DNA from: a virus
DNA: 64,000 bases
Strand: one strand, 5' to 3'
IMG/VR virus record: IMGVR_UViG_3300028840_006907
Coordinates: 1-64,000 of that record
Position numbers and translations under genes: made by a program. Under the pieces are notes generated by a model. It worked only from the letters and a program-made list of their open reading frames with translations. It did no database searches and was not told where the DNA came from. This document shows positions 5,353 through 53,095 of the stretch, one piece after another. Numbering within the stretch: position 1 is the first letter of the stretch; every line of letters starts with the position of its first letter.

Positions 5353-6360
5353 TTAATCTACCCATTGAATTTTTCTACGGTACTGACCTGTTACTTCATC
5401 TATATCAGAGACATTTCCTGCTTCCTTTACTATTAAATTTAATTTACGTTTTAATTCTAGCTGAAGATCATCACTTTTTATTATTTCGGGAGAAGTATGT
5501 TTCTCCAAAAAATTATTTTTTAAATCAAGCAATTGTTTTTCAATGCTCACATCTCCAACAAAATTGAGTTCTGAAAAATCATCAATAAATTTTTTAAGTG
5601 AATTAATAGTAGGGCCTTTAACAATTTTCCCTGATTTCATATTGGTGGCGATTTTATCACAAAGAGTTACTACTTGTTCACGAAGATTTGTAACAACCTC
5701 ATTGATAAAAGAACCAATCTTTTCTTGGGCCTCTTTCTGATAAACATCGTAGGCAATATTCTCTTTTGCAATTTTATCTTCAGAAACTTTTCTCATTTTC
5801 GGTAGAGCAATTTCAAATATATTCCAGGTTAAAGAGAACCTATTTCTTAATGAAGTTGTGCTTGGATAGTATGATTTTATTCGGTCAAGAAAATTTGTGA
5901 CGAATTCTTCCTCTTCGTTTTCTTTACCTTCAATACTGAATTCATGAACACCTATTTTTGTTTGTCGGTTATAGGCAGCTTTGGCTGCTTCCTCATAAAT
6001 AGGTAGCATCTCTTTTCGTAATTTGTCGTAATCAACAATCAGGTTATCGATTAATTTATTATATGCCTCCTGATATTCCTGAAGAGTTTGCAGTATTTTT
6101 AAAAATTTCTTTTTGGGTACAAACCGTGCTGAACTTATAGGGAATTTAAAACTGTTCGTCTCAACTAGAAACCGAGCTTTACTTTCAATAGATCTGAATT
6201 TATGTATGGTTTCTTTTGGAACGAGCATCTTCTTACCAAGAAGATAAACATTAGATATAGTGTCTTTTTCTAATCCCAAGTCTTGAGCAGTCAGGATTTT
6301 TGCTCCAGTCCAGAACCGCACTTTAATTTCAACTAAAACACCATCTTTAAATATATCCAT
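5353..6360 (-). CDS. DUF3150-like protein (plasmid/phage-associated)
   Basis: N-terminal VLVEIKVRFWTGAKILTAQDLGL pattern recalled as typical of DUF3150; 335 aa. Confidence 0.4.
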   Translation of the reverse strand: MDIFKDGVLVEIKVRFWTGAKILTAQDLGLEKDTISNVYLLGKKMLVPKETIHKFRSIESKARFLVETNSFKFPISSARFVPKKKFLKILQTLQEYQEAYNKLIDNLIVDYDKLRKEMLPIYEEAAKAAYNRQTKIGVHEFSIEGKENEEEEFVTNFLDRIKSYYPSTTSLRNRFSLTWNIFEIALPKMRKVSEDKIAKENIAYDVYQKEAQEKIGSFINEVVTNLREQVVTLCDKIATNMKSGKIVKGPTINSLKKFIDDFSELNFVGDVSIEKQLLDLKNNFLEKHTSPEIIKSDDLQLELKRKLNLIVKEAGNVSDIDEVTGQYRRKIQWVD

Positions 6361-6386: not shown

Positions 6387-6420
6387 CTGTCCCTTTAATG
6401 AAAAAGGGACAGTGTTTTTT
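6387..6420 (+). terminator. hairpin plus T-run oriented for plus-strand transcription
   Basis: ctgtcccttt...aagggacag stem followed by tgtttttt, overlapping stop of 6419-7981 gene. Confidence 0.35.
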
Positions 6421-7981
6421 ATAAGTTTAATTTCCTTTTACCTATTACCTGTTCAGCCTTCATCTCTATTGAAGCTTTTTTCACTCTACGTTTTTCAGAC
6501 CATTCACGGCCTTTCTTAATATCCTCGGCATAAAGCTGTGCTGTAAGTGATACTTCTTTAGCACTTGTAACAAGATCTTCAGTGGAGATTTCCTGATTTT
6601 TGCTGAATGAAAATTTCAGAGTATCATTAATCCAAACTTCAATTTCAGATCCACTAAAATCTTTAGTGGATTTAACTAATTGCTTTATGTCGAAGTTGCT
6701 GGGGTCACGATTTATTTTTCCCAAATGTATTGAGATAATTTTCTCTCGTTCACTATCATAAGGGAAATCAACCCAGAAGATTGCATCCATACGACCACCA
6801 CGAATTAGTTCAGGAGGTAGTTTCGTTGCATCGTTTGAAGTAGCTGCAATGAATACATCAGTTGTTCTTTCAGCCATCCAGGTTAAAAGTGTTGCTAGCA
6901 TTTTTTGAGAAGTCTCATGAACATGCCCACTTTTATTATTAGGAAAAGCTTTTTCGATTTCATCTATTCGTAAGACACAGGGAGCATTTGCATCAACGAT
7001 ACTGAGACATCTTCTTATTTTCTCTTCTGATTCTCCTACAAGACTGCCTAAGAGTGCACCTACATCAAGACTGAATAATGGTCGTTCCCAAACATTGGCG
7101 ATAACTTTTGCAACAAGAGATTTCCCGGTTCCAGGAGGGCCTACGAATAGGGCACCTTTGGGAGGAAGTATTCCATATTCTCTGGCTTTCTCAGTGAAAC
7201 AATTCTTTCTAACCAGGAGCCATTCTTTAAGGTTATCAAGTCCACCAATGTCATCAAGAGTTTCTGTTACACTAATAACATTTAAGAGCCCTGTGTTTTT
7301 AACAACTGTGGCTTTTTCTCTATTAATAACATTAATGTCAAGACATTTTCTTTCAACAATGGAAAGAGAATAAGCATTCTCAGCTTCATCAGATGTCATT
7401 CCTAAGGCTGCTTCAATAAGGGAAGTATCGTTTTTGGGGTACTCTATGGAATCTTCAACTGATCTAGCGTTTTCATAAGCTCGTTGACATACTTTTCTTA
7501 AAGTATTTGTATTTGGAAGTTTAAAATCAATTACAGTTATTTCTTTCTTTAATTCATCTGGTATTGATGAACAGCAAGAAACAACAGCCAAAACTCTACC
7601 GGTAGATCTGCAGATTGGAATTATATTTCGTATTTTTCGTTGAATAAAATCTTTTTTAATATAATGGTGGAAATCTAATAGAAAAAAGATAGAATTCTCT
7701 TCCACCTCTTCTGAACTTATCCAATTAAGAGCCAACATTGGATCATCTGTTTTAGTTTTTATATCTAATTTATTTTCTAAAAGGATATTATTATCATTTA
7801 TTTCTCGGAGTTTGATTCCATCAACTCTGTCCCAAGAATAAAATTTATAATTTCCTTTGTCAAGTTTGTTCATTTCATTTGCTAGGGTTCTTATCGCCCT
7901 ATGTTCTTCATGGGTCTGTATCCACAAAATTGTATAACCGGCACGTATATAATTTGAAAAGATGTGTTCTTTATTTTCCAT
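6419..7981 (-). CDS. AAA+ ATPase with N-terminal domain of unknown function
   Basis: Walker A GPPGTGKS, Walker B VLRIDEIEKA, sensor region TSNDATKLPPELIRGGRMD. Confidence 0.85.
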   Translation of the reverse strand: MENKEHIFSNYIRAGYTILWIQTHEEHRAIRTLANEMNKLDKGNYKFYSWDRVDGIKLREINDNNILLENKLDIKTKTDDPMLALNWISSEEVEENSIFFLLDFHHYIKKDFIQRKIRNIIPICRSTGRVLAVVSCCSSIPDELKKEITVIDFKLPNTNTLRKVCQRAYENARSVEDSIEYPKNDTSLIEAALGMTSDEAENAYSLSIVERKCLDINVINREKATVVKNTGLLNVISVTETLDDIGGLDNLKEWLLVRKNCFTEKAREYGILPPKGALFVGPPGTGKSLVAKVIANVWERPLFSLDVGALLGSLVGESEEKIRRCLSIVDANAPCVLRIDEIEKAFPNNKSGHVHETSQKMLATLLTWMAERTTDVFIAATSNDATKLPPELIRGGRMDAIFWVDFPYDSEREKIISIHLGKINRDPSNFDIKQLVKSTKDFSGSEIEVWINDTLKFSFSKNQEISTEDLVTSAKEVSLTAQLYAEDIKKGREWSEKRRVKKASIEMKAEQVIGKRKLNL

Positions 7982-9743: not shown

Positions 9744-10134
9744 AAGCTCTTAATACTATACGATCCTCTTCATCAACAGTTTCTTCATAACTTAAACACA
9801 TTGAATCATATTCTGATTTGGCCCTTTCAACATTATAATAAGTGAAAAGTTTCTTCTGCCACTCTTCACCATATCCATTTGCTTCATCAATATGAGCTAT
9901 ATAATTTCCTTCAACAGTTTGTTCAAAACCGAAGTCATTATGGTAATTACCAATATGTTCTTTACGGATAATAATATGACCTAGTTTTTCTGTTGGATTT
10001 CCTTGCCAATCATTTAACTTATTTGCTATATCAAATATCTCAATCTGCTCCTCGGTAAAACCCATTCGAATCAAGGCTTTAACCAAAGAATCTTTATCGT
10101 TGATTATTGTCACTATGTCAACGTAATGACTCAT
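9736..10134 (-). CDS. hypothetical protein
   Basis: 132-aa ORF. Confidence 0.5.
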   Translation of the reverse strand: MSHYVDIVTIINDKDSLVKALIRMGFTEEQIEIFDIANKLNDWQGNPTEKLGHIIIRKEHIGNYHNDFGFEQTVEGNYIAHIDEANGYGEEWQKKLFTYYNVERAKSEYDSMCLSYEETVDEEDRIVLRAYV

Positions 10135-12355: not shown

Positions 12356-13540
12356 TTATCCTCTTACATAATCAGTTACACAGTTAATTTCATCATCACT
12401 TATCCAGGCACCGTGATATCGTTCAGGTTCAGAAGCACCAGGATAAATCATTAACATATCTCCCTTACCGGCCAGAGCTTCAGCTCCATTGCAATCAAGA
12501 ATAACTCTGGAATCATTTTTGGATGATACTTGGAATGAGATCCTTGAAGGCATATTGGATTTAATAAGACCAGTGATAACTTTAACGATAGGCTTTTGAG
12601 TTGCAAGTACCAGATGGATACCTACTGCTCTGGCTAATTGAGCCAACCGTACGATCATTTTCTCAAGTTCTTTACCTGAAGTCATCATAAGATCAGCCAT
12701 CTCATCAACCACAGTTACTATATAAGGAAGTTTTGTATCGGAATTTTTATTAAAACTTTCGATATTTCTTACTCGATAATCAGCTAAGAGTTTATATCTA
12801 CGATCCATTTCTTCAATTAAATCTGAGAACACATGCACCGCTTCTGAGGGCTCGGTAACCACAGGGCATCTCAGGTGGGATAAATTATTATATGACGCCA
12901 TTTCCACTCTCTTGGGATCGACAAGGACAAGCTGGCATTCATCTGGTGTTCGAGTAAATAATATTGAAAGAAGAATACTATTTATACATACAGATTTACC
13001 TGATCCAGTTTGACCTGCGATTAAAAGATGAGGCATAGTAGTCAAATCGATTATTTTTGGATTACCAATAGTATCGGTTCCAAGTACGATGGGAATCTTG
13101 GTATTGGAATCAGTGGTAAAGATATCACGGAAACCGATAATGGATCTTGTTTCATTCATCATTTCTATTCCAACACAAGCTGTACCTGGAATGGGTGCTT
13201 GGATTCTGATATTGGATGACATTAAAGCCATTGCGATATCTTCAGTGATCTTTTTAATCTGAGCAATCCTTACACCTTTTGATAATTTCAGTTCATATCG
13301 GGTAACCACTGGGCCATGTTTAATATCCTGGACAGCAGTATCGAATCCAAGTTCAGCGATCCTGTTTTCAAGATCATGAGAGCTTAAACTGTTGGGTATT
13401 CTATTGGATGAATACTCGTTTAAGAGTCCTAAATGAGGTTTTCTATATCTTTTGTTTTTCTTCTTTTTACATGCATCTTCCTCGGAATTAAGGAGTTGCA
13501 TTACATTTAAGAGCTTTCTGAATTTTGTTGATTTGTTCAT
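12356..13540 (-). CDS. FtsK/SpoIIIE-family DNA translocase motor (alpha/beta domains only)
   Basis: GPVVTRYEL, APIPGT..VGIE, Walker A GQTGSGKS, Walker B VVDEMADLMM; no N-terminal TM or gamma domain. Confidence 0.8.
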   Translation of the reverse strand: MNKSTKFRKLLNVMQLLNSEEDACKKKKNKRYRKPHLGLLNEYSSNRIPNSLSSHDLENRIAELGFDTAVQDIKHGPVVTRYELKLSKGVRIAQIKKITEDIAMALMSSNIRIQAPIPGTACVGIEMMNETRSIIGFRDIFTTDSNTKIPIVLGTDTIGNPKIIDLTTMPHLLIAGQTGSGKSVCINSILLSILFTRTPDECQLVLVDPKRVEMASYNNLSHLRCPVVTEPSEAVHVFSDLIEEMDRRYKLLADYRVRNIESFNKNSDTKLPYIVTVVDEMADLMMTSGKELEKMIVRLAQLARAVGIHLVLATQKPIVKVITGLIKSNMPSRISFQVSSKNDSRVILDCNGAEALAGKGDMLMIYPGASEPERYHGAWISDDEINCVTDYVRG

Positions 13541-20973: not shown

Positions 20974-21882
20974 TCAATACTTCGACTGATTACATCCATG
21001 ATTAAATTTGTATTCATTTAATTCATCATTGGACATATGTCCATGTTTCTTGATCGTTTCTTCTAAAATCTGAGGTAATAACTTTTCACCCCAAACTCCC
21101 ATGTTCGGGACAATCTCTCCTCTTGAATTTTTGGATTTGGTAGGGTCTCCTTCAAGAGCATTGGCTCTGATTTTATTTCGTTCCAGTAGCTCCCATTCCT
21201 CATAGTCCTCACGATAAAATCTGTACAACCATAAAAGTTCGATCTCACTCATGAAAGGACATAATAAACAGTTCGATGGATAAGGCACATGCAAGCCCGT
21301 AGAGGCCATGTAATCCTGGCAATCCTTTCTATCCATTCCCATCTCTATGAGTGGATAGATAACCTCTATGGCTTTCTCCTGCCATTTTGGGCGCTCACCC
21401 TTGTTAACACGTTTTTCTTCTCCTTTGGCAATACCGATAAGCATATTGATTTTATCATATGTTTCAGCAAATTGTTTCAATCCTTTCTTTCTTCCTGATT
21501 TAAATCCATATTCTTTTTGAATCCAGTATTCGAGATATTTATATATAGGTCTCAATTTAAGTCTTTCGGTACAAGTTTTGGGAAAACATTTGCTTCCAAT
21601 TCTATTTTTTGTTTTATAGAAAAATCTTAATGTTTGCCAGTCGGGAGAGTGGAATCCCATGTCGTTTGTAAGATGAACAAATTCTACTACATTTTGAGAA
21701 CAGAATTCCTTTATAAATTGTATATGTTTATAGGTATGGGGATGCTCATCACCAGTATCGGCCATGATCACCAAAAGCCGTCCTGGTGCATATTTTTTTC
21801 TGAAATTGTTATCGAGGGCGTACTTGTAAAGTAAAGTGGTGCTGTCTTGTCCGCCCCCGTAACTTAAGACCGTAAGTTCCAT
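20974..21882 (-). CDS. PAPS-reductase/ATP-sulfurylase-like (adenine-nucleotide alpha-hydrolase) protein
   Basis: N-terminal LSYGGGQDSTTLL PP-loop variant of SGGxDS. Confidence 0.65.
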   Translation of the reverse strand: MELTVLSYGGGQDSTTLLYKYALDNNFRKKYAPGRLLVIMADTGDEHPHTYKHIQFIKEFCSQNVVEFVHLTNDMGFHSPDWQTLRFFYKTKNRIGSKCFPKTCTERLKLRPIYKYLEYWIQKEYGFKSGRKKGLKQFAETYDKINMLIGIAKGEEKRVNKGERPKWQEKAIEVIYPLIEMGMDRKDCQDYMASTGLHVPYPSNCLLCPFMSEIELLWLYRFYREDYEEWELLERNKIRANALEGDPTKSKNSRGEIVPNMGVWGEKLLPQILEETIKKHGHMSNDELNEYKFNHGCNQSKY

Positions 21883-22707
21883 CTATTTATTTTTCTCCTG
21901 GTTTGAAGTATCTTTTTTATAAAGGATAAGATCCTTTATTTCATGAGGATTATAATAGAATTGTGTACTCGGATTTTCTTGAGCCATTGAAGTAATTGTT
22001 TTCAGTAATTCTTTTATTAATTGATTTTCTATAGTTTTATATTTTTGAGATGGTAATGGCTCTCCTTTCTTTATAAATAAATTTCTTCCTTTGCATAGTA
22101 AAAGTACTCTACCTCTATTAATCAAATAAGAAGCTTTTTGTTTTGTTATCCCAACGGATTTAGCCCATTCATCAATAGACTGATAACCTGATGGTGGTTT
22201 AATATCTTTCAGTTTTGGTTGAAGAAGAGAAAGGTTTGAAAAGAATTGTTTATCTTTATGTCTATTTATTCGATTACCTTTACAATGTCTACAAGGTTTT
22301 TTACATAAACCTATAAAATGTATTCGTAGATTTCCACAATTTTTACAAAATCCAAGTCTAGGTTTATTTAAAAATAATGTTTTTAGACGCTCGGGATTAT
22401 GATAAATCTGTCTATATTCTTTTCTCTCATTAATTGTTTTGTCTTTGTCATAAGGTCTTGTAGGGATACCTGTATAATATAAATCTATAGCCTCTTTATT
22501 ATATTCTAAAAAAGATACCCAGGCTTTTTCAACTAATAATTCTGGGTCTTTTTTAGCAAGACTTACATGTATATCTTCAAAAAATATGTTATAATTTGAG
22601 AGTGTTTTAAATCCTTCATAAAGCTGTTCCATATCCCATACATGAAAGATATACCTATTAGCATGAAAGCAATTGAAGGCATCTAAAATTTCATCATAAT
22701 CCATCAT
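21883..22707 (-). CDS. zinc-finger protein with HTH-like segment
   Basis: CKNCGN...CKKPCRHCKG cluster; abuts PAPS-reductase-like gene. Confidence 0.5.
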   Translation of the reverse strand: MMDYDEILDAFNCFHANRYIFHVWDMEQLYEGFKTLSNYNIFFEDIHVSLAKKDPELLVEKAWVSFLEYNKEAIDLYYTGIPTRPYDKDKTINERKEYRQIYHNPERLKTLFLNKPRLGFCKNCGNLRIHFIGLCKKPCRHCKGNRINRHKDKQFFSNLSLLQPKLKDIKPPSGYQSIDEWAKSVGITKQKASYLINRGRVLLLCKGRNLFIKKGEPLPSQKYKTIENQLIKELLKTITSMAQENPSTQFYYNPHEIKDLILYKKDTSNQEKNK

Positions 22708-23279
22708 TTCTCCAATTGTACCAAAATTCTCACCAAGTCACTTTTAGTGAAAGTGACATTACCTACTATAAGTTTTCCCCTTTTTATTTGATAAGGGAGA
22801 GAAATATCTGCTGATTCTTTTTGTGAAGTTTCAATAGCTTTGGTAGTTTTAAGGGATTCAATATAAGCTCTTTGTTCTGATCGATTACGAATATGGTCAG
22901 AAGCAAAAACTTGTTTTACTTGATCTGGTTGAAGATTATGTATACTTACTTTCAACACATCATTATTTGGTAATAAAACATCTAGAGGTTCTTCTACATA
23001 TTTAGATTGTTCTGCAAAAGAACATTTTCCAAGTTTCTTTGCCCCTGTTGTAAGATTAGTGAGGAGTTTTACATGAAGAGAACCTCTTCCTACAGATTCA
23101 AACCTGCGCCATGCAGTAGAGGAAATATCAGGATAGGCTTCTTGAAAATCGTATATTGCATCTGGATTGTCATCTATTGTTTTAACATATAGCTTACATG
23201 CTTTTAAAAGATATCCAATACCTTTTGTAAATAACTCTCCAAATTTATTAATTGCTGTTTCTTGAATATTATTTTTCAT
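22704..23279 (-). CDS. hypothetical protein
   Basis: 191-aa ORF, 4-nt overlap with downstream gene. Confidence 0.5.
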   Translation of the reverse strand: MKNNIQETAINKFGELFTKGIGYLLKACKLYVKTIDDNPDAIYDFQEAYPDISSTAWRRFESVGRGSLHVKLLTNLTTGAKKLGKCSFAEQSKYVEEPLDVLLPNNDVLKVSIHNLQPDQVKQVFASDHIRNRSEQRAYIESLKTTKAIETSQKESADISLPYQIKRGKLIVGNVTFTKSDLVRILVQLEK

Positions 23280-23499
23280 TTATTGTACCTTCTAAAGAAA
23301 TATGTGAATTGAATCCTTTAGAGAAATATTGTGCTGGGTTAAATTTAAAAATTGCTATTCCTCCTATTGCCACAAGAAAAATAAAGAGAATGATTCTCCC
23401 GATCTTTCTTGGCAATTCTTTTCTTCGACGTTTAGCCATAAAATCTTTTTCATTTATTTTCATTATTATCCTCATTATTATCCTCATTATTATCCTCAT
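23269..23499 (-). CDS. small membrane protein with N-terminal (MRII)n repeat
   Basis: 12-nt tandem repeat encodes MRIIMRIIMRIIM; then basic stretch and TM helix; start set to first ATG. Confidence 0.35.
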   Translation of the reverse strand: MRIIMRIIMRIIMKINEKDFMAKRRRKELPRKIGRIILFIFLVAIGGIAIFKFNPAQYFSKGFNSHISLEGTINEK

Positions 23500-23508
23500 T
23501 ATTATTAA
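23461..23508. repeat. 12-bp tandem repeat, about 4 copies
   Basis: cattattatcct x3 plus one degenerate copy. Confidence 0.9.
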
Positions 23509-23708
23509 TCGCACTTTACATGGTAATTTAAGAATGATGCTTCATCCCATTTTTTTCCATTGTCTAATACAACTATATCACCTTCCCGTTCAATGACGGG
23601 AGGTTCAATAGCAACGACAACAACAATATCATTGTCTAATGTGCTTCGATATTTTATTCCAATTTCAATCATATCCTTCCTCCTGGTTAAATGGCATACT
23701 CCATCCAT
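23505..23708 (-). CDS. hypothetical protein
   Basis: 67-aa ORF. Confidence 0.35.
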   Translation of the reverse strand: MDGVCHLTRRKDMIEIGIKYRSTLDNDIVVVVAIEPPVIEREGDIVVLDNGKKWDEASFLNYHVKCD

Positions 23709-46877: not shown

Positions 46878-48008
46878 TTAACCAACAAGATCTAAGATCT
46901 TATCAAGGGTTTCATTCTTTTCTTTCATTTGAACTGTAGGATTAGGATTATGTGAAGTCTCTTCAGGAGATTCAATTAATTCCAATACAGTTTCGAGAGC
47001 ATTGGATTTTAATTGAGCACCACTACCTACCCACGCACTATCGGCACGGGCTTGTTCTTGAGTAGTATATCCAGACGTAGATGTTACTCTACTAGGTCTT
47101 TTATGATCCACGTAATTAGTAACAGCATTCACCAAAGCCATACCCGTTCCAGCTTGTTCCGGGATAGCATTATCATCATTATCATTAAATAGTTTAGCTA
47201 TCTCAAGGGCTTTATCAGATTTCTTATCTGATTGTTCCCATTTCTCACCAAAGATACGAGTCATAGTCTGTGCAAAAAGTTCTTTGGTAACTTTATGAGT
47301 AATAATCTTTTCAAACTTTTCTTTAAGAGAATTTATATCCTGTTTTAATCCGGTTTGAATCTCAGTGGTTATTTTATTAAGTTTCTCTTTAGCACCTTTG
47401 GTATGTCTTACTTTAATCATTGCATCCTTAGTGCCTTTAGATAAGGCAAAATTCAAAGTGTTCTGACATACTACCCGTACATCGGTGAGCATAATTGTAT
47501 TACTCATAGTTCCATCATGAGCACTCATAAACATGATAAATGTTTCGTGTTTATCATTTCCGATGGAAGCGTTAAAGGGGACACGGGCCAAAGCCCAGAC
47601 ACGTTCTCCACGTCCTAAAACTCCGGCAGCTTCATAATGTGCACCATCAATCTGTTCTAAGACATTATCAATCCATCCACCGATTTCAATATTTTGCGTA
47701 GGTTCATAGGTATTACCTACGATACCAAGGGCGCTTTCCTTACCAGTTAAATCGGAACGAAAGATACCAAATTGATTCGGGAAAACATATCCTTTAGGTA
47801 CAGTGCTTCCAGGTTTCCATAAAGGATTCTTAAAGAATAACGGCCTTTTTTCGACCGTCCAATCTAATTGAGCCAGTTCATAAGCTTCTTTCCAGGTCAT
47901 TGCATGATTGACCATTTGTCCTAGTTCATGCCACGGTAAACCATGTTCATCTATGGCATATGCAGCCGATACTAAACCGTTTTTTGCTGTAAATAAATTA
48001 TGAGCCAT
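46878..48008 (-). CDS. DUF932-like phage/plasmid protein
   Basis: N-terminal AYAIDEHGLPWHELG...MTWKEAYELAQLDWTVEKRPL pattern recalled as typical of DUF932. Confidence 0.5.
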   Translation of the reverse strand: MAHNLFTAKNGLVSAAYAIDEHGLPWHELGQMVNHAMTWKEAYELAQLDWTVEKRPLFFKNPLWKPGSTVPKGYVFPNQFGIFRSDLTGKESALGIVGNTYEPTQNIEIGGWIDNVLEQIDGAHYEAAGVLGRGERVWALARVPFNASIGNDKHETFIMFMSAHDGTMSNTIMLTDVRVVCQNTLNFALSKGTKDAMIKVRHTKGAKEKLNKITTEIQTGLKQDINSLKEKFEKIITHKVTKELFAQTMTRIFGEKWEQSDKKSDKALEIAKLFNDNDDNAIPEQAGTGMALVNAVTNYVDHKRPSRVTSTSGYTTQEQARADSAWVGSGAQLKSNALETVLELIESPEETSHNPNPTVQMKEKNETLDKILDLVG

Positions 48009-48274
48009 TGAAAGACTCCTTTCATGATAAGGGTTCCACTAACTTATTAAAGTCAGCTATTATAGTTATTTGGGTTTTTTATTTACTATGAGGGATTGAC
48101 CAGACTATAAAGAGCATTGCCTTTATTATCAGTCTGGCCTGTTTTCTTCCAGAGACCGAAAGAACTATTTATATATTCAGGTTCAGTCTCTACACCATGT
48201 AATCTGATATATTCAGACCATGAATATTCAGACCATGAAGTAGTGCAGACAGGGGGAGAAGGGAAAGCAATCAT

Positions 48275-48763
48275 TTATACAATGCTCCAGATTTCTTTAG
48301 TCTCACCGTCTTTAACTTCGTAAAAGGTCACGTTACCGTGATCATTCACTAAGAACAATTCACCGGTATAGTTATCAGGGACTTCAGACAAGTCTGAAAC
48401 TTTAATACCGTCGAAATCAATATCATCTAAGTCACACGGCCAGTAACCGTAATCGGAACCATCACCGGGATGGGCACCGAAGTAACAATATGGCGGAGCA
48501 AAAGAATCAAGTGCATTCCAAAGATCTTCATTGAGATATTCTGAAACGTTCTCACTGTCCCAGTCTAAATCTTTGTCCTCTGGAATATTAAGATCTTCTT
48601 TTTCTTCGTTATATTTAATGATCTTTTCACCTTCAGCAATAACTGAAGTATACTCGTTATTTTCATCCAGTTCTTTCAGAAGATCTAAGAAACACGGGAT
48701 AAGATCTTCTGGTTTCATTGTTGCATGACTAACTGTACCTAATGTTATTTTCATGTTATTCAC
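48275..48763 (-). CDS. hypothetical acidic protein
   Basis: 162-aa ORF. Confidence 0.5.
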   Translation of the reverse strand: MNNMKITLGTVSHATMKPEDLIPCFLDLLKELDENNEYTSVIAEGEKIIKYNEEKEDLNIPEDKDLDWDSENVSEYLNEDLWNALDSFAPPYCYFGAHPGDGSDYGYWPCDLDDIDFDGIKVSDLSEVPDNYTGELFLVNDHGNVTFYEVKDGETKEIWSIV

Positions 48764-51517: not shown

Positions 51518-51572
51518 AATATTTCCCCTTGTCTAATGTATATATTAACAGTCAATTATTTTTTTCTGTTGT

Positions 51573-51940
51573 CATGAATAATGAAAAAAGTTTAGTAACT
51601 TTCCGAAGTTTTAAGAAACTTTTTCTTTGACGTTTGTTTTTTGTGGCTTTCATGAGTAATGAAAAAAGTTTAGTAACTTTCCGAAGTTTTAAAAATTTTT
51701 TCTTTCATGTAAACTTTTCCTTGTCTACATGAGTAATGAAAAAAGTTTAGTAACTTTCCGAAGTTTTAAAAATTTTTTCTTTCATGTAAACTTTTCCTTG
51801 TCTACATGAGTAATGAAATTAGTTTGGTAACTTTCCGAAGTTTTAAAAATTTTTTCTTTCATGTAAACTTTTCCTTGTCTACATGAGTAATGAAATTAGT
51901 TTGGTAACTTTCCGGAAAAAATTGTAAAAACGCTATTTTC
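51573..51940. repeat. 77-bp tandem direct repeats, about 4.4 copies
   Basis: Units begin at 51573 (degenerate), 51651, 51728, 51805, 51882 (partial). Confidence 0.95.
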
Positions 51941-52312
51941 CTTTATATAGGGGAGAGCCAGAAATCGCCCGTTTGATGTGCGTGATATATACGCCCGAAA
52001 ATGTTCCCGGTTCTAACCCCCCAGTGAAATACCCTTTCCACAAAAGTGAAATACCCCAATACAACTATACCATACCCGACCATACCCCACCCCCGGGACC
52101 TGTCTTCGGGATCATCATCATGCGCTTGCTTTTCGTGCGCTCAATGCCATACCCACCCCCTTTTTGTAAAGATTTTTGGAAGTTGGAAATGGATGGAGTT
52201 AGATTGGATTTTTTGGATGGTAGAAAATTTTGGCTGGTGGGAGAGACCCCACAGTAAAGTACCCGGTTGGTTCAGGGAAGTACCAATATGGTTCAGTGGA
52301 GTGTCTTTTTTG

Positions 52313-52370
52313 TGGCGCATATCCTGTTATAGTGGCGCATATTCTATTATAATGGCGCATATTTCAGTTC
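52313..52370. repeat. three direct GTGGCGCATAT boxes at about 20-bp spacing
   Basis: gtggcgcatatcctgttata / gtggcgcatattctattata / atggcgcatatttcagttca. Confidence 0.9.
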
Positions 52371-52397
52371 AAAGCTCTCAGAACCCAGTTCAAAGAA

Positions 52398-52628
52398 CAG
52401 GGAACAGGGAACTGAGCACAGGGAACTGAGCACAGGGAACCGAGCACAGGGAACCGAGCACAGGGAACTGAGCACAGGGAACTGAGCACAGGGAACTGAG
52501 CACAGGGAACCGAGCACAGGGAACCGAGCACAGGGAACTGAGCACAGGGAACCGAGCACAGGGAACTGAGAACAGGGAACCGAGCACAGGGAACTGAGAA
52601 CAGGGAACTGAGAACAGGGAACCGAGCA
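52398..52628. repeat. 14-bp tandem repeat array, 16 copies, GC-rich
   Basis: CAGGGAAC(T/C)GAGCA with T/C and C/A variants; partial copy then units from 52405. Confidence 0.95.
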
Positions 52629-52872
52629 CCTGTATCTGTGATCTCGGAAAAGTTTCGGGAAAAAAATCGGGAACGGCTCAGGGCTGAGAAATAGGTATGA
52701 ATTTTTTTGGGGTATAATTTTTGGAGTTAAACAGTTGGGGAAATTGGAGTTATCTTATGTGAGGTGATGGGATAGTTTATGGAGGGTGAAAATTTTTTGG
52801 TATAGTTTGATGGAGAAACAGGTATAATACTTATAGGACGGAAAAATTTAAGTCTAATGGTTCGAGGATCTT

Positions 52873-53064
52873 GTGAAGAAGAACACAAAGCGTAAATTAA
52901 ATAAATTGATAGCATTTTGCAAGGATGAGGGGATGGACATAAGTGCGGATGGTGGTTTAATTTATGTCACGGTAGGAAATGGTCGGATGAATGAGGAGGT
53001 TTGGTGTGAGAAGGCTATCAGTGGTTTTTCGGAGGTTGGTGATTTTGGTTTTAACGAGGATTAA
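52873..53064 (+). CDS. hypothetical protein, first gene of rightward array
   Basis: 63-aa ORF; GGTATAAT box about 40 nt upstream. Confidence 0.45.
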   Translation: MKKNTKRKLNKLIAFCKDEGMDISADGGLIYVTVGNGRMNEEVWCEKAISGFSEVGDFGFNED

Positions 53065-53095
53065 AACCTATTAACATTAAACAATTGAGGTAGTT

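Follow-up and report, generated by a model that had tools for sequence, protein, structure and literature searches.

A copy-number-variable 12-nt repeat that appears to multiply the translation-initiation region of a small predicted membrane-protein ORF in a large phage-like element

The DNA analysed here (hereafter, the window) consists of positions 1 to 64,000 of the IMG/VR virus record IMGVR_UViG_3300028840_006907 and belongs to an element that is found on metagenome contigs of about 469 kb. Between two co-directional genes, the window carries a perfect tandem array of 12-nucleotide (nt) units that lies at the 5' end of a small open reading frame (ORF) for a predicted membrane protein. Because nearly all ORFs of at least 150 amino acids (aa) between position 1 and ~51.5 kb are on the minus strand, the array is read here as the reverse complement. 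The features of the locus, from the upstream to the downstream gene, are as follows (SD, Shine-Dalgarno sequence; TRF, Tandem Repeats Finder).

23505..23672, minus strand: co-directional gene on the upstream side; the called protein has 55 aa, and the longest ORF, which reaches 23708, would give 67 aa. The array directly adjoins the TAA stop codon of this gene (23507-23505).
23269..23514, minus strand: longest ORF by translation, 81 aa from a GTG, which takes in the whole array as MRLII(MRII)3.
23460..23505, minus strand: perfect 12-nt tandem array, 3.8 copies (TRF and lag-12 statistics); on this strand, the unit is GAGGATAATAAT followed by G.
23497..23499, minus strand: first in-frame ATG, without an SD, 5 nt past the TAA of the upstream gene (direct reading).
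23461..23497, minus strand: three complete putative initiation modules, each GAGGA (SD core) plus a TAATA spacer plus ATG (exact 13-mer matches).
23269..23463, minus strand: core ORF by translation, 64 aa (MKINEKDF...), with the last ATG of the array, at 23463, as its start.
22704..23279, minus strand: downstream co-directional gene, 191 aa, with relatives at 51-79% identity; it serves as the anchor for synteny.

TRF delimits the array at 23460-23505, with a period of 12, 3.8 copies, 100% matches, a score of 92 and the plus-strand consensus TCATTATTATCC. When identity runs in the window were counted at lags 4 to 30, the array yielded 34 consecutive identical bases at lag 12. The best runs at other lags spanned 7-16 bases, with the exceptions of lag 24, which captures the 12-bp array itself, and lags 14 and 28, which capture a 14-bp array in a non-coding region; only this latter array exceeds the 12-bp array among the perfect short-period runs of the window. 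When the window was simulated 200 times with a first-order Markov model, the maximal lag-12 run averaged 8.5 bases (standard deviation 1.0) and never exceeded 12. Thus, the array is a product of duplication and not a chance feature of AT-rich DNA, and it consists of short units arranged head to tail beyond chance expectation, as is the case in a variable-number tandem repeat (VNTR).

Read on the coding strand, the last codons of the upstream gene are ...AAG TGC GAT TAA; TAATA comes next, followed by four ATG codons separated from one another by AGGATAATA; the last of these opens the core ORF, ATG AAA ATA AAT GAA AAA GAT TTT ATG GCT... Three identical copies of the 13-mer GAGGATAATAATG are arranged head to tail on the minus strand (23461-23473, 23473-23485 and 23485-23497), compared with 0.32 occurrences expected by chance. 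In the window allele, the in-frame ATGs that are served by an SD begin at 23487, 23475 and 23463, and we judge them to be equivalent. The first ATG, at 23499, which has no SD, overlaps the run TAA-TAA-TAA-TGA in the frame of the upstream gene (the codons that follow the stop of that gene in the same frame are TAA, TAA and TGA) and is a candidate termination-reinitiation start.

As a reference for start signals, we used the 25 nt upstream of each of 43 genes called on the ENA contig L001, in the surrounding 20 kb. Most of these genes have GGAG, GAGG or AGGA located 5-9 nt before the ATG, with an AT-rich spacer (for example, 'gatgaggaataaaATG' and 'taaggagtaagatATG'). Each of the three units of the array likewise has the anti-SD core 5-9 nt before a start, and the predicted duplex of the array SD with the 3' end of 16S rRNA, at -6.1 kcal/mol, is inside the range of the 43 neighbouring genes. 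Given that the GAGGA-N5-ATG layout matches that of the neighbouring genes, the 12-nt unit appears to be a complete canonical initiation region for this genome. Judging from these signals, the repeat multiplies the whole initiation region and not merely the peptide 'MRII'.

The codon content of the array is consistent with this reading. In this genome, AGG accounts for 8% of the arginine codons and for 2.3 per 1000 of all codons, and the coding-versus-non-coding log-odds of the array codons are -1.50 for AGG and -0.41 for ATA. Because these non-coding-like codons are atypical and the array begins 5 nt past the upstream stop, 'MRII' may largely represent a 5' leader rather than a selected peptide. 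In both the minimum free energy and the centroid folds predicted for the mRNA, the array is wholly unpaired in each of the two alleles described below, which would leave the initiation region accessible.

Three other explanations of the array were considered and rejected. RNA structure was dismissed because the array is unpaired in the predicted folds and the fold of the region is no more stable than that of shuffled sequence (z = -0.2 and -0.6 for the two alleles). A promoter or terminator function is unsupported, with 9 promoter-like sites found against 9.5 expected, and no terminators. Finally, an ORF runs through the array on the plus strand (114 aa, FIFIIILIIIL...), but the neighbouring genes are all on the minus strand and have SDs.

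An initial annotation, made from the letters of the window and a list of its ORFs, had described a 12-bp tandem repeat ('cattattatcct x3-4') at 23461-23508, at the 5' end of a small membrane-protein ORF, with an in-frame ATG in every unit, so that units could be gained or lost without a frameshift. This description was essentially right: TRF gives slightly different limits, the minus-strand ORF at 23269-23514 has one predicted transmembrane helix, an ATG is seen in each unit of its translation, and the 12-nt unit is in frame. The (MRII)n N-terminus that was named there is indeed encoded in frame; however, the unit looks like an initiation region composed of an SD and an ATG, and much of MRII might not be a functional part of the protein.

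The number of units differs between assemblies. The ENA contig L001 (ERZ27256798, k141_1708087; 469,021 bp) contains two GAGGATAATAAT units where the window contains three. By BLAST, the 20,207-nt L001 locus aligns to window positions 33487-13269 without a mismatch; the only gap in the alignment measures 12 nt and is inside the array. The zero-mismatch background for this comparison covers 20.2 kb, and the unit number of the array is the only difference across it. Copy number therefore differs between near-identical genomes, another property of a VNTR, with two alleles, both of which come from assemblies.

The protein cluster of the ORF has two members, P0001 and P0002. P0001, of 68 aa (MRIIMKINE...), is encoded on two ENA contigs (469,260 and 469,021 bp) and, in L001, starts at an SD-served ATG. 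P0002, of 72 aa (MRIIMRIIMKINE...), is encoded on NCBI, JGI and Logan contigs, the longest of 469,617 bp; taken alone, P0002 could fit either the second ATG of the three-unit allele or the SD-less first ATG of the two-unit allele.

Conceivably, the difference between two and three units could be an artefact of assembly, that is, a collapse or expansion of the repeat at an invariant locus. Both alleles come from metagenome assemblies only, and a short-k Logan contig breaks at the array, where assemblers struggle when k is small. The position of this break, however, matches the 3.8-copy allele exactly. Logan assembles at k=31, and in the 46-nt array with a period of 12, the 31-mers that start at 23490-23493 repeat those that start at 23502-23505, so that the first unique 31-mer is at 23489. 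The Logan contig L002 (SRR6963591), which is 100% identical to window positions 23489-18854, begins precisely at 23489. A break of this kind is expected at k=31 for the 3.8-copy allele and not for the 2.8-copy allele; the start of L002 therefore provides indirect but independent support for three units. For the two-unit allele, the ENA contig runs cleanly through the 2.8-copy array. In de Bruijn assemblers, the contig sequence must rest on real k-mers, and because the name of this contig, k141_..., points to a final k of 141, long enough to span the array (46 nt is well below both this k and typical read lengths), collapse in the two-unit assembly is unlikely. Altogether, we consider an assembly artefact to be quite improbable.

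No further allele was found with exact flank patterns in IMG/VR, JGI metagenome contigs or GTDB genomes. Two adjacent units, used as an exact pattern, had no match in IMG/VR, and back-translated P0002 had no relative among the metagenome contigs searched. The initial annotation had proposed a possible length-variation locus, to be examined by comparing copy numbers; when this comparison was made between assemblies, the counts proved not to be invariant, with three units in the window and two in L001. The called proteins, of 68 and 72 aa, start at SD-served ATGs; the SD in each unit had been missed by the initial annotation.

The 81-aa ORF begins MRLIIMRIIMRIIMRIIMKINEKDF..., with an ATG inside every unit, and the sequence of the 64-aa core is MKINEKDFMAKRRRKELPRKIGRIILFIFLVAIGGIAIFKFNPAQYFSKGFNSHISLEGTINEK. 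The core protein has an N-terminal tail with a net charge of +6, one 21-residue hydrophobic segment, which begins 20 residues into the protein and has a mean Kyte-Doolittle score of up to 2.6, and a neutral C-terminal tail of 23 residues. It is accordingly predicted to be a single-pass membrane protein with the N-terminus inside. The ORF fills the 225-nt gap between the two co-directional genes, and the last 11 nt of the ORF coincide with the beginning of the next gene.

Neither the core ORF nor the three nearest neighbouring ORFs have a Pfam or PHROG match. A word-indexed search of 5.8 billion protein clusters matched only the ORF's own cluster, and an exhaustive phmmer search of 1.84 billion representative proteins returned the protein itself and two giant ORFs, P0003 and P0004. 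We rejected the latter two as homologues: P0004 consists of near-identical repeats of ~92 aa the weak scores of which are summed, and P0003 is likewise matched in many stretches. The reported values are deceptively strong, E = 1e-67 for P0003 (3939 aa, 44 stretches) and E = 1e-32 for P0004 (1930 aa, 21 stretches), and the summation of weak repeat matches is a trap for short queries that combine a basic and a hydrophobic part.

The downstream 191-aa gene allows the neighbourhood to be compared in three relatives, L006, L008 and L009. The slot immediately upstream of this gene is located, according to the synteny comparison, at the following positions.

23280-23505: slot in the window.
2171-2500: slot in L006.
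1-284: slot in L008.
9785-10000: slot in L009.

In each of these three relatives, a different and unrelated gene for a small soluble protein (69, 67 and 68 aa) occupies the slot, which appears to be a spot of local gene turnover. L006, L008 and L009 offer no orthologous initiation region for comparison with the array. In L008, the relative with 79% identity, the 67-aa peptide is encoded at 68-271, upstream of the orthologue of the 191-aa gene, and ends ...GAGEVIGQAVIESVTA; by eye only, this ending resembles the C-terminal motif region of a C5 DNA methyltransferase.

From the repeat itself, its SD and ATG make-up, its in-frame geometry and the polymorphism of two versus three units, we infer, with a probability of roughly 60%, that the array is a tandem multiplication, produced by slippage, of the gene's own translation-initiation region. 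Under this scenario, an ancestor with one unit would have carried ATAATAATGA, that is, the AT-rich spacer with the ATG, twice, with one copy in the region of the upstream stop and the other at the start codon. Spaced 12 nt apart, the two copies would amount to a direct repeat of 10 nt on which replication slippage could act, and each slip would gain or lose one in-frame 12-nt module consisting of GAGGA, a 5-nt spacer and ATG.

Under the same scenario, the three-unit allele would provide three SD-served starts of equal strength and one candidate reinitiation start, and the two-unit allele would provide two SD-served starts. Ribosomes may initiate in any of these registers, in which case the products would be the 64-aa core with 0 to 3-4 MRII units added to its cytoplasmic tail, which is strongly basic even without them. 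The footprint of a bound 30S subunit is ~35 nt, and because of this, together with the predicted lack of structure in the array, the modules would act as alternative registers of a single enlarged landing pad. In contrast to the alleles of an on/off phase-variable gene, all alleles of the array retain an in-frame ATG that is served by an SD. Because the unit is always in frame and comes with its own SD and ATG, the effect of the array would be only quantitative, on initiation frequency, coupling to the upstream gene and the mix of isoforms, or on N-terminal length. Most likely, the unit number is neutral or mildly tunes expression. A precedent for a tuning effect comes from laboratory evolution of Escherichia coli, where a 10-nt duplication created a tandem ribosome-binding site (RBS) upstream of ascB and raised expression 5-6 fold (PMC4488073).

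Several observations weigh against the interpretation of the array as a multiplied initiation region of a functional gene. The ORF is an orphan without homologues beyond its own lineage, and it is missing from the slot upstream of the 191-aa gene in all three relatives. Its leave-one-out codon-usage score, 0.117, is the lowest of the 42 local genes (the scores of the 41 neighbours average 0.279 and go no lower than 0.141), and one antisense frame across the ORF scores nearly the same, 0.102. Hence the ORF may not be a functional gene, and its translation is a supposition drawn from the sequence. Furthermore, just two alleles are documented, both from metagenome assemblies, and whether SD-ATG modules 12 nt apart would change the output upwards, downwards or not at all is not reliably predictable.

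The same low codon-usage score and nearly equal antisense frame, the lack of homologues among the 5.8 billion clustered and 1.84 billion representative proteins, and the unrelated genes in the slot of the relatives would also fit an alternative whereby the ORF is untranslated. The 225-nt gap would then be intergenic, and the array would be a neutral non-coding VNTR of AT-rich, leader-like sequence. Against this, the chance probability of encountering no stop in 64-81 codons is ~0.006-0.001 at the local composition, so that an open frame spanning the gap is improbable; canonical SD-ATG modules are present; the ORF overlaps the next start by 11 nt, as coupled genes typically do; and the predicted single-pass topology is well formed and follows the positive-inside pattern. 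Hydrophobic proteins often score low in codon-usage tests, and the low score could accordingly reflect hydrophobic composition or, alternatively, a young or horizontally acquired gene. We therefore view the untranslated ORF as unlikely, and the ORF, on the available sequence, as probably a lineage-specific orphan gene.

If the array is a multiplied initiation region, the question arises whether it is maintained by selection. It could be an adaptive contingency locus, a 'translational rheostat', where selection keeps a slippage-prone array that heritably and reversibly tunes the dose, or the ratio of N-terminal isoforms, of a membrane protein with a role of consequence in infection. As the sole difference in 20.2 kb, the array indicates a mutation rate far above the background at this site; the perfect identity of all copies implies that turnover is recent or still under way; every unit looks like a functional initiation region; and RBS duplication can shift expression several-fold (PMC4488073). 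However, this is a single locus, with no other gene start in the 64-kb window that has such an array; the known alleles number two; the lack of conservation of the gene, even among close relatives, speaks against an important function; and perfect short VNTRs also arise and vary neutrally. Selection for such tuning thus seems unlikely. The broader proposition that this is a natural rheostat in a huge phage-like genome, where the number of units varies initiation frequency and isoform mix without ever inactivating the membrane protein, likewise strikes us as doubtful.

A different role could be envisaged by analogy with phage holins that have two starts. Longer, arginine-bearing isoforms would then inhibit a shorter, membrane-active form, and the number of units would set the timing of lysis. 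The ORF encodes a small phage-like membrane protein with in-frame methionines a few codons apart and a positively charged residue between them, as in a holin dual-start motif, with M-R-I-I-M repeated. The genomic setting speaks against this: the precomputed Pfam families of the genes called within +/-10 kb include no endolysin, lysozyme or amidase, the ORFs that were scanned directly gave no lysis-type match, and there is no holin family match. In the lambda S and S21 proteins, the extra N-terminal positive charge acts by changing topology, whereas in the protein analysed here, the N-terminal tail is already at +6 and is predicted to be cytoplasmic with or without the MRII units. Additional arginines would leave the topology unchanged, with no predicted switch from N-out to N-in. 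The single transmembrane domain (TMD) with the neutral C-terminal tail of 23 residues is also unlike class III holins, which have a large periplasmic domain, and the slot is not conserved in relatives. A holin-type function is thus very improbable.

Outside this locus, the window is densely packed with small co-directional ORFs, and most called genes of the flanking contig lack a Pfam match on record. The G+C content is 29-41% in most 2-kb bins, with one bin at 24.5%. No tRNA genes were detected in the window. The family matches obtained in the window are listed here in order of position.

1501-2574: N6/N4 DNA methyltransferase.
5353-6360: DUF3150.
6419-7981: AAA ATPase (phrog_8638).
12356-13540: FtsK/SpoIIIE-like ATPase.
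20974-21882: PAPS-reductase-like protein.
46878-48008, minus strand: DUF932.

In the corresponding ENA locus, L005, the gene that comes just after the DUF3150 gene encodes 85 aa and has a Pfam match to SpoVG. The gene content of window positions 1-51500 hints at a large mobile element with DNA-handling functions. Megablast searches with 1.6 kb against GenBank phage records and with 12 kb against plasmids (PLSDB) yielded no match, the phage matches are limited to a distant AAA-ATPase with less than 30% identity, and there is no virion hallmark gene among the window ORFs that were scanned. We take the element to be an uncultivated huge phage or a comparable large mobile element, with 'phage' being an assignment that we infer.

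Further along the window, at 51520-53090, there is a gene-free region of ~1.5 kb where the gene orientation flips from minus to plus and the GC skew changes sign; it looks like a replication origin, a terminus or a control region. The repeats detected by TRF in this region, and one additional direct repeat elsewhere in the window, are as follows.

48209-48239: perfect 15-bp x 2.1 direct repeat, ATATTCAGACCATGA, in the gap between the minus-strand ORFs 46878-48008 and 48275-48763.
51573-51914: 77-bp x 4.4 array (TRF).
52313-52363: 20-bp x 2.5 repeat (TRF).
52404-52629: 14-bp x 16 array, ACAGGGAACTGAGC (TRF).

The 77-bp array contains the ends of independent assemblies: the JGI contig Ga0180437_10000019 (388,651 bp) ends at window position ~51792 (L003 1-130), and the ENA contig k141_1708087 starts near window position 51875, according to coordinate arithmetic. 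Contig ends in this array may explain the differing sizes of 469,021, 469,260 and 469,617 bp. Inspected by eye, L003 and the window do not differ in the 14-bp and 20-bp arrays.

The polymorphic array at the start of the small ORF is of interest on several counts. If the number of units tunes translation, the array would be a compact natural case of graded, hypermutable control of expression in a virus-like element, and if it is indeed selected as a rheostat, an in-frame, dosage-type counterpart to classical on/off phase variation; an array design of this kind, combining SD and ATG in the unit, could also serve synthetic biology. If the array is neutral, it would be a handy VNTR strain marker for the uncultivated ~469-kb element. 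In either case, there is a warning for gene calling: the choice of start shifts with the allele, such that products of 68 and 72 aa from the same gene become separate database entries. Because this is a single locus, in an orphan gene that is not conserved in relatives, with two known alleles, the biological weight of the array is probably small. The evidence presented here supports neither an on/off switch nor a holin-type dual start.

Among the known systems, the simple sequence repeat (SSR) contingency loci are an obvious point of comparison, such as the CAAT repeats of lic1A in Haemophilus influenzae, with alternative ATGs, and the CTCTT repeats of opa in Neisseria. The array resembles these in being a perfect short repeat at the very start of a gene whose product is an envelope or membrane protein, in its apparent slippage and in the several possible starts near the repeat. 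In lic1A and opa, however, the units are not multiples of three, and the outcome is a frameshift that switches the gene on or off, or between strong and weak, whereas the 12-nt unit of the array is in frame and has its own SD and ATG.

The dual-start motif of holins, as in lambda S107/S105 and phage 21 S71/S68, where the longer form gains a positively charged residue (PMC9636201), is similar in that closely spaced in-frame methionines open a small phage membrane protein. It differs in that it is a fixed Met-Lys-Met with one regulated initiation region, whereas the starts in the array come from a polymorphic repeat, each with its own SD. The two also differ with respect to lysis-cassette context and holin family matches, neither of which the array gene has, and in the single TMD and basic N-terminal tail, predicted to be cytoplasmic, of the protein described here.

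Another comparison is the tandem RBS of ascB (PMC4488073), which is likewise a short tandem duplication of a ribosome-binding region directly before the start codon. The ascB duplication contains no start codon and arose once under strong selection, whereas the unit of the array includes the ATG, so that the N-terminus changes; unlike the array, the ascB case is not a natural multi-copy polymorphic array. In Beggiatoaceae and Cyanobacteria, TAACTGA heptamer repeats are located directly before start codons and differ between strains by whole units; they are distributed genome-wide, with about 170 sets in one genome, and have been proposed to be a regulator-binding site (PMC4679880). The array shares with these repeats the position at the start codon and the unit-wise insertions and deletions. 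Unlike the heptamers, which have little SD character, contain no ATG and occur throughout the genome, the array is a single locus with a unit that has a canonical SD and an ATG.

A limited literature search found no described natural polymorphic array where a whole SD and ATG module is the unit. The in-frame coding VNTRs of surface and membrane proteins are also similar, given that the unit is a multiple of three and the protein length varies without a frameshift. These VNTRs, however, are inside the ORF and do not multiply initiation signals, in contrast to the array, where the unit is apparently shaped by the needs of an initiation region. Among the known systems, the array behaves as an SSR/VNTR locus rather than as a classical phase-variation switch.

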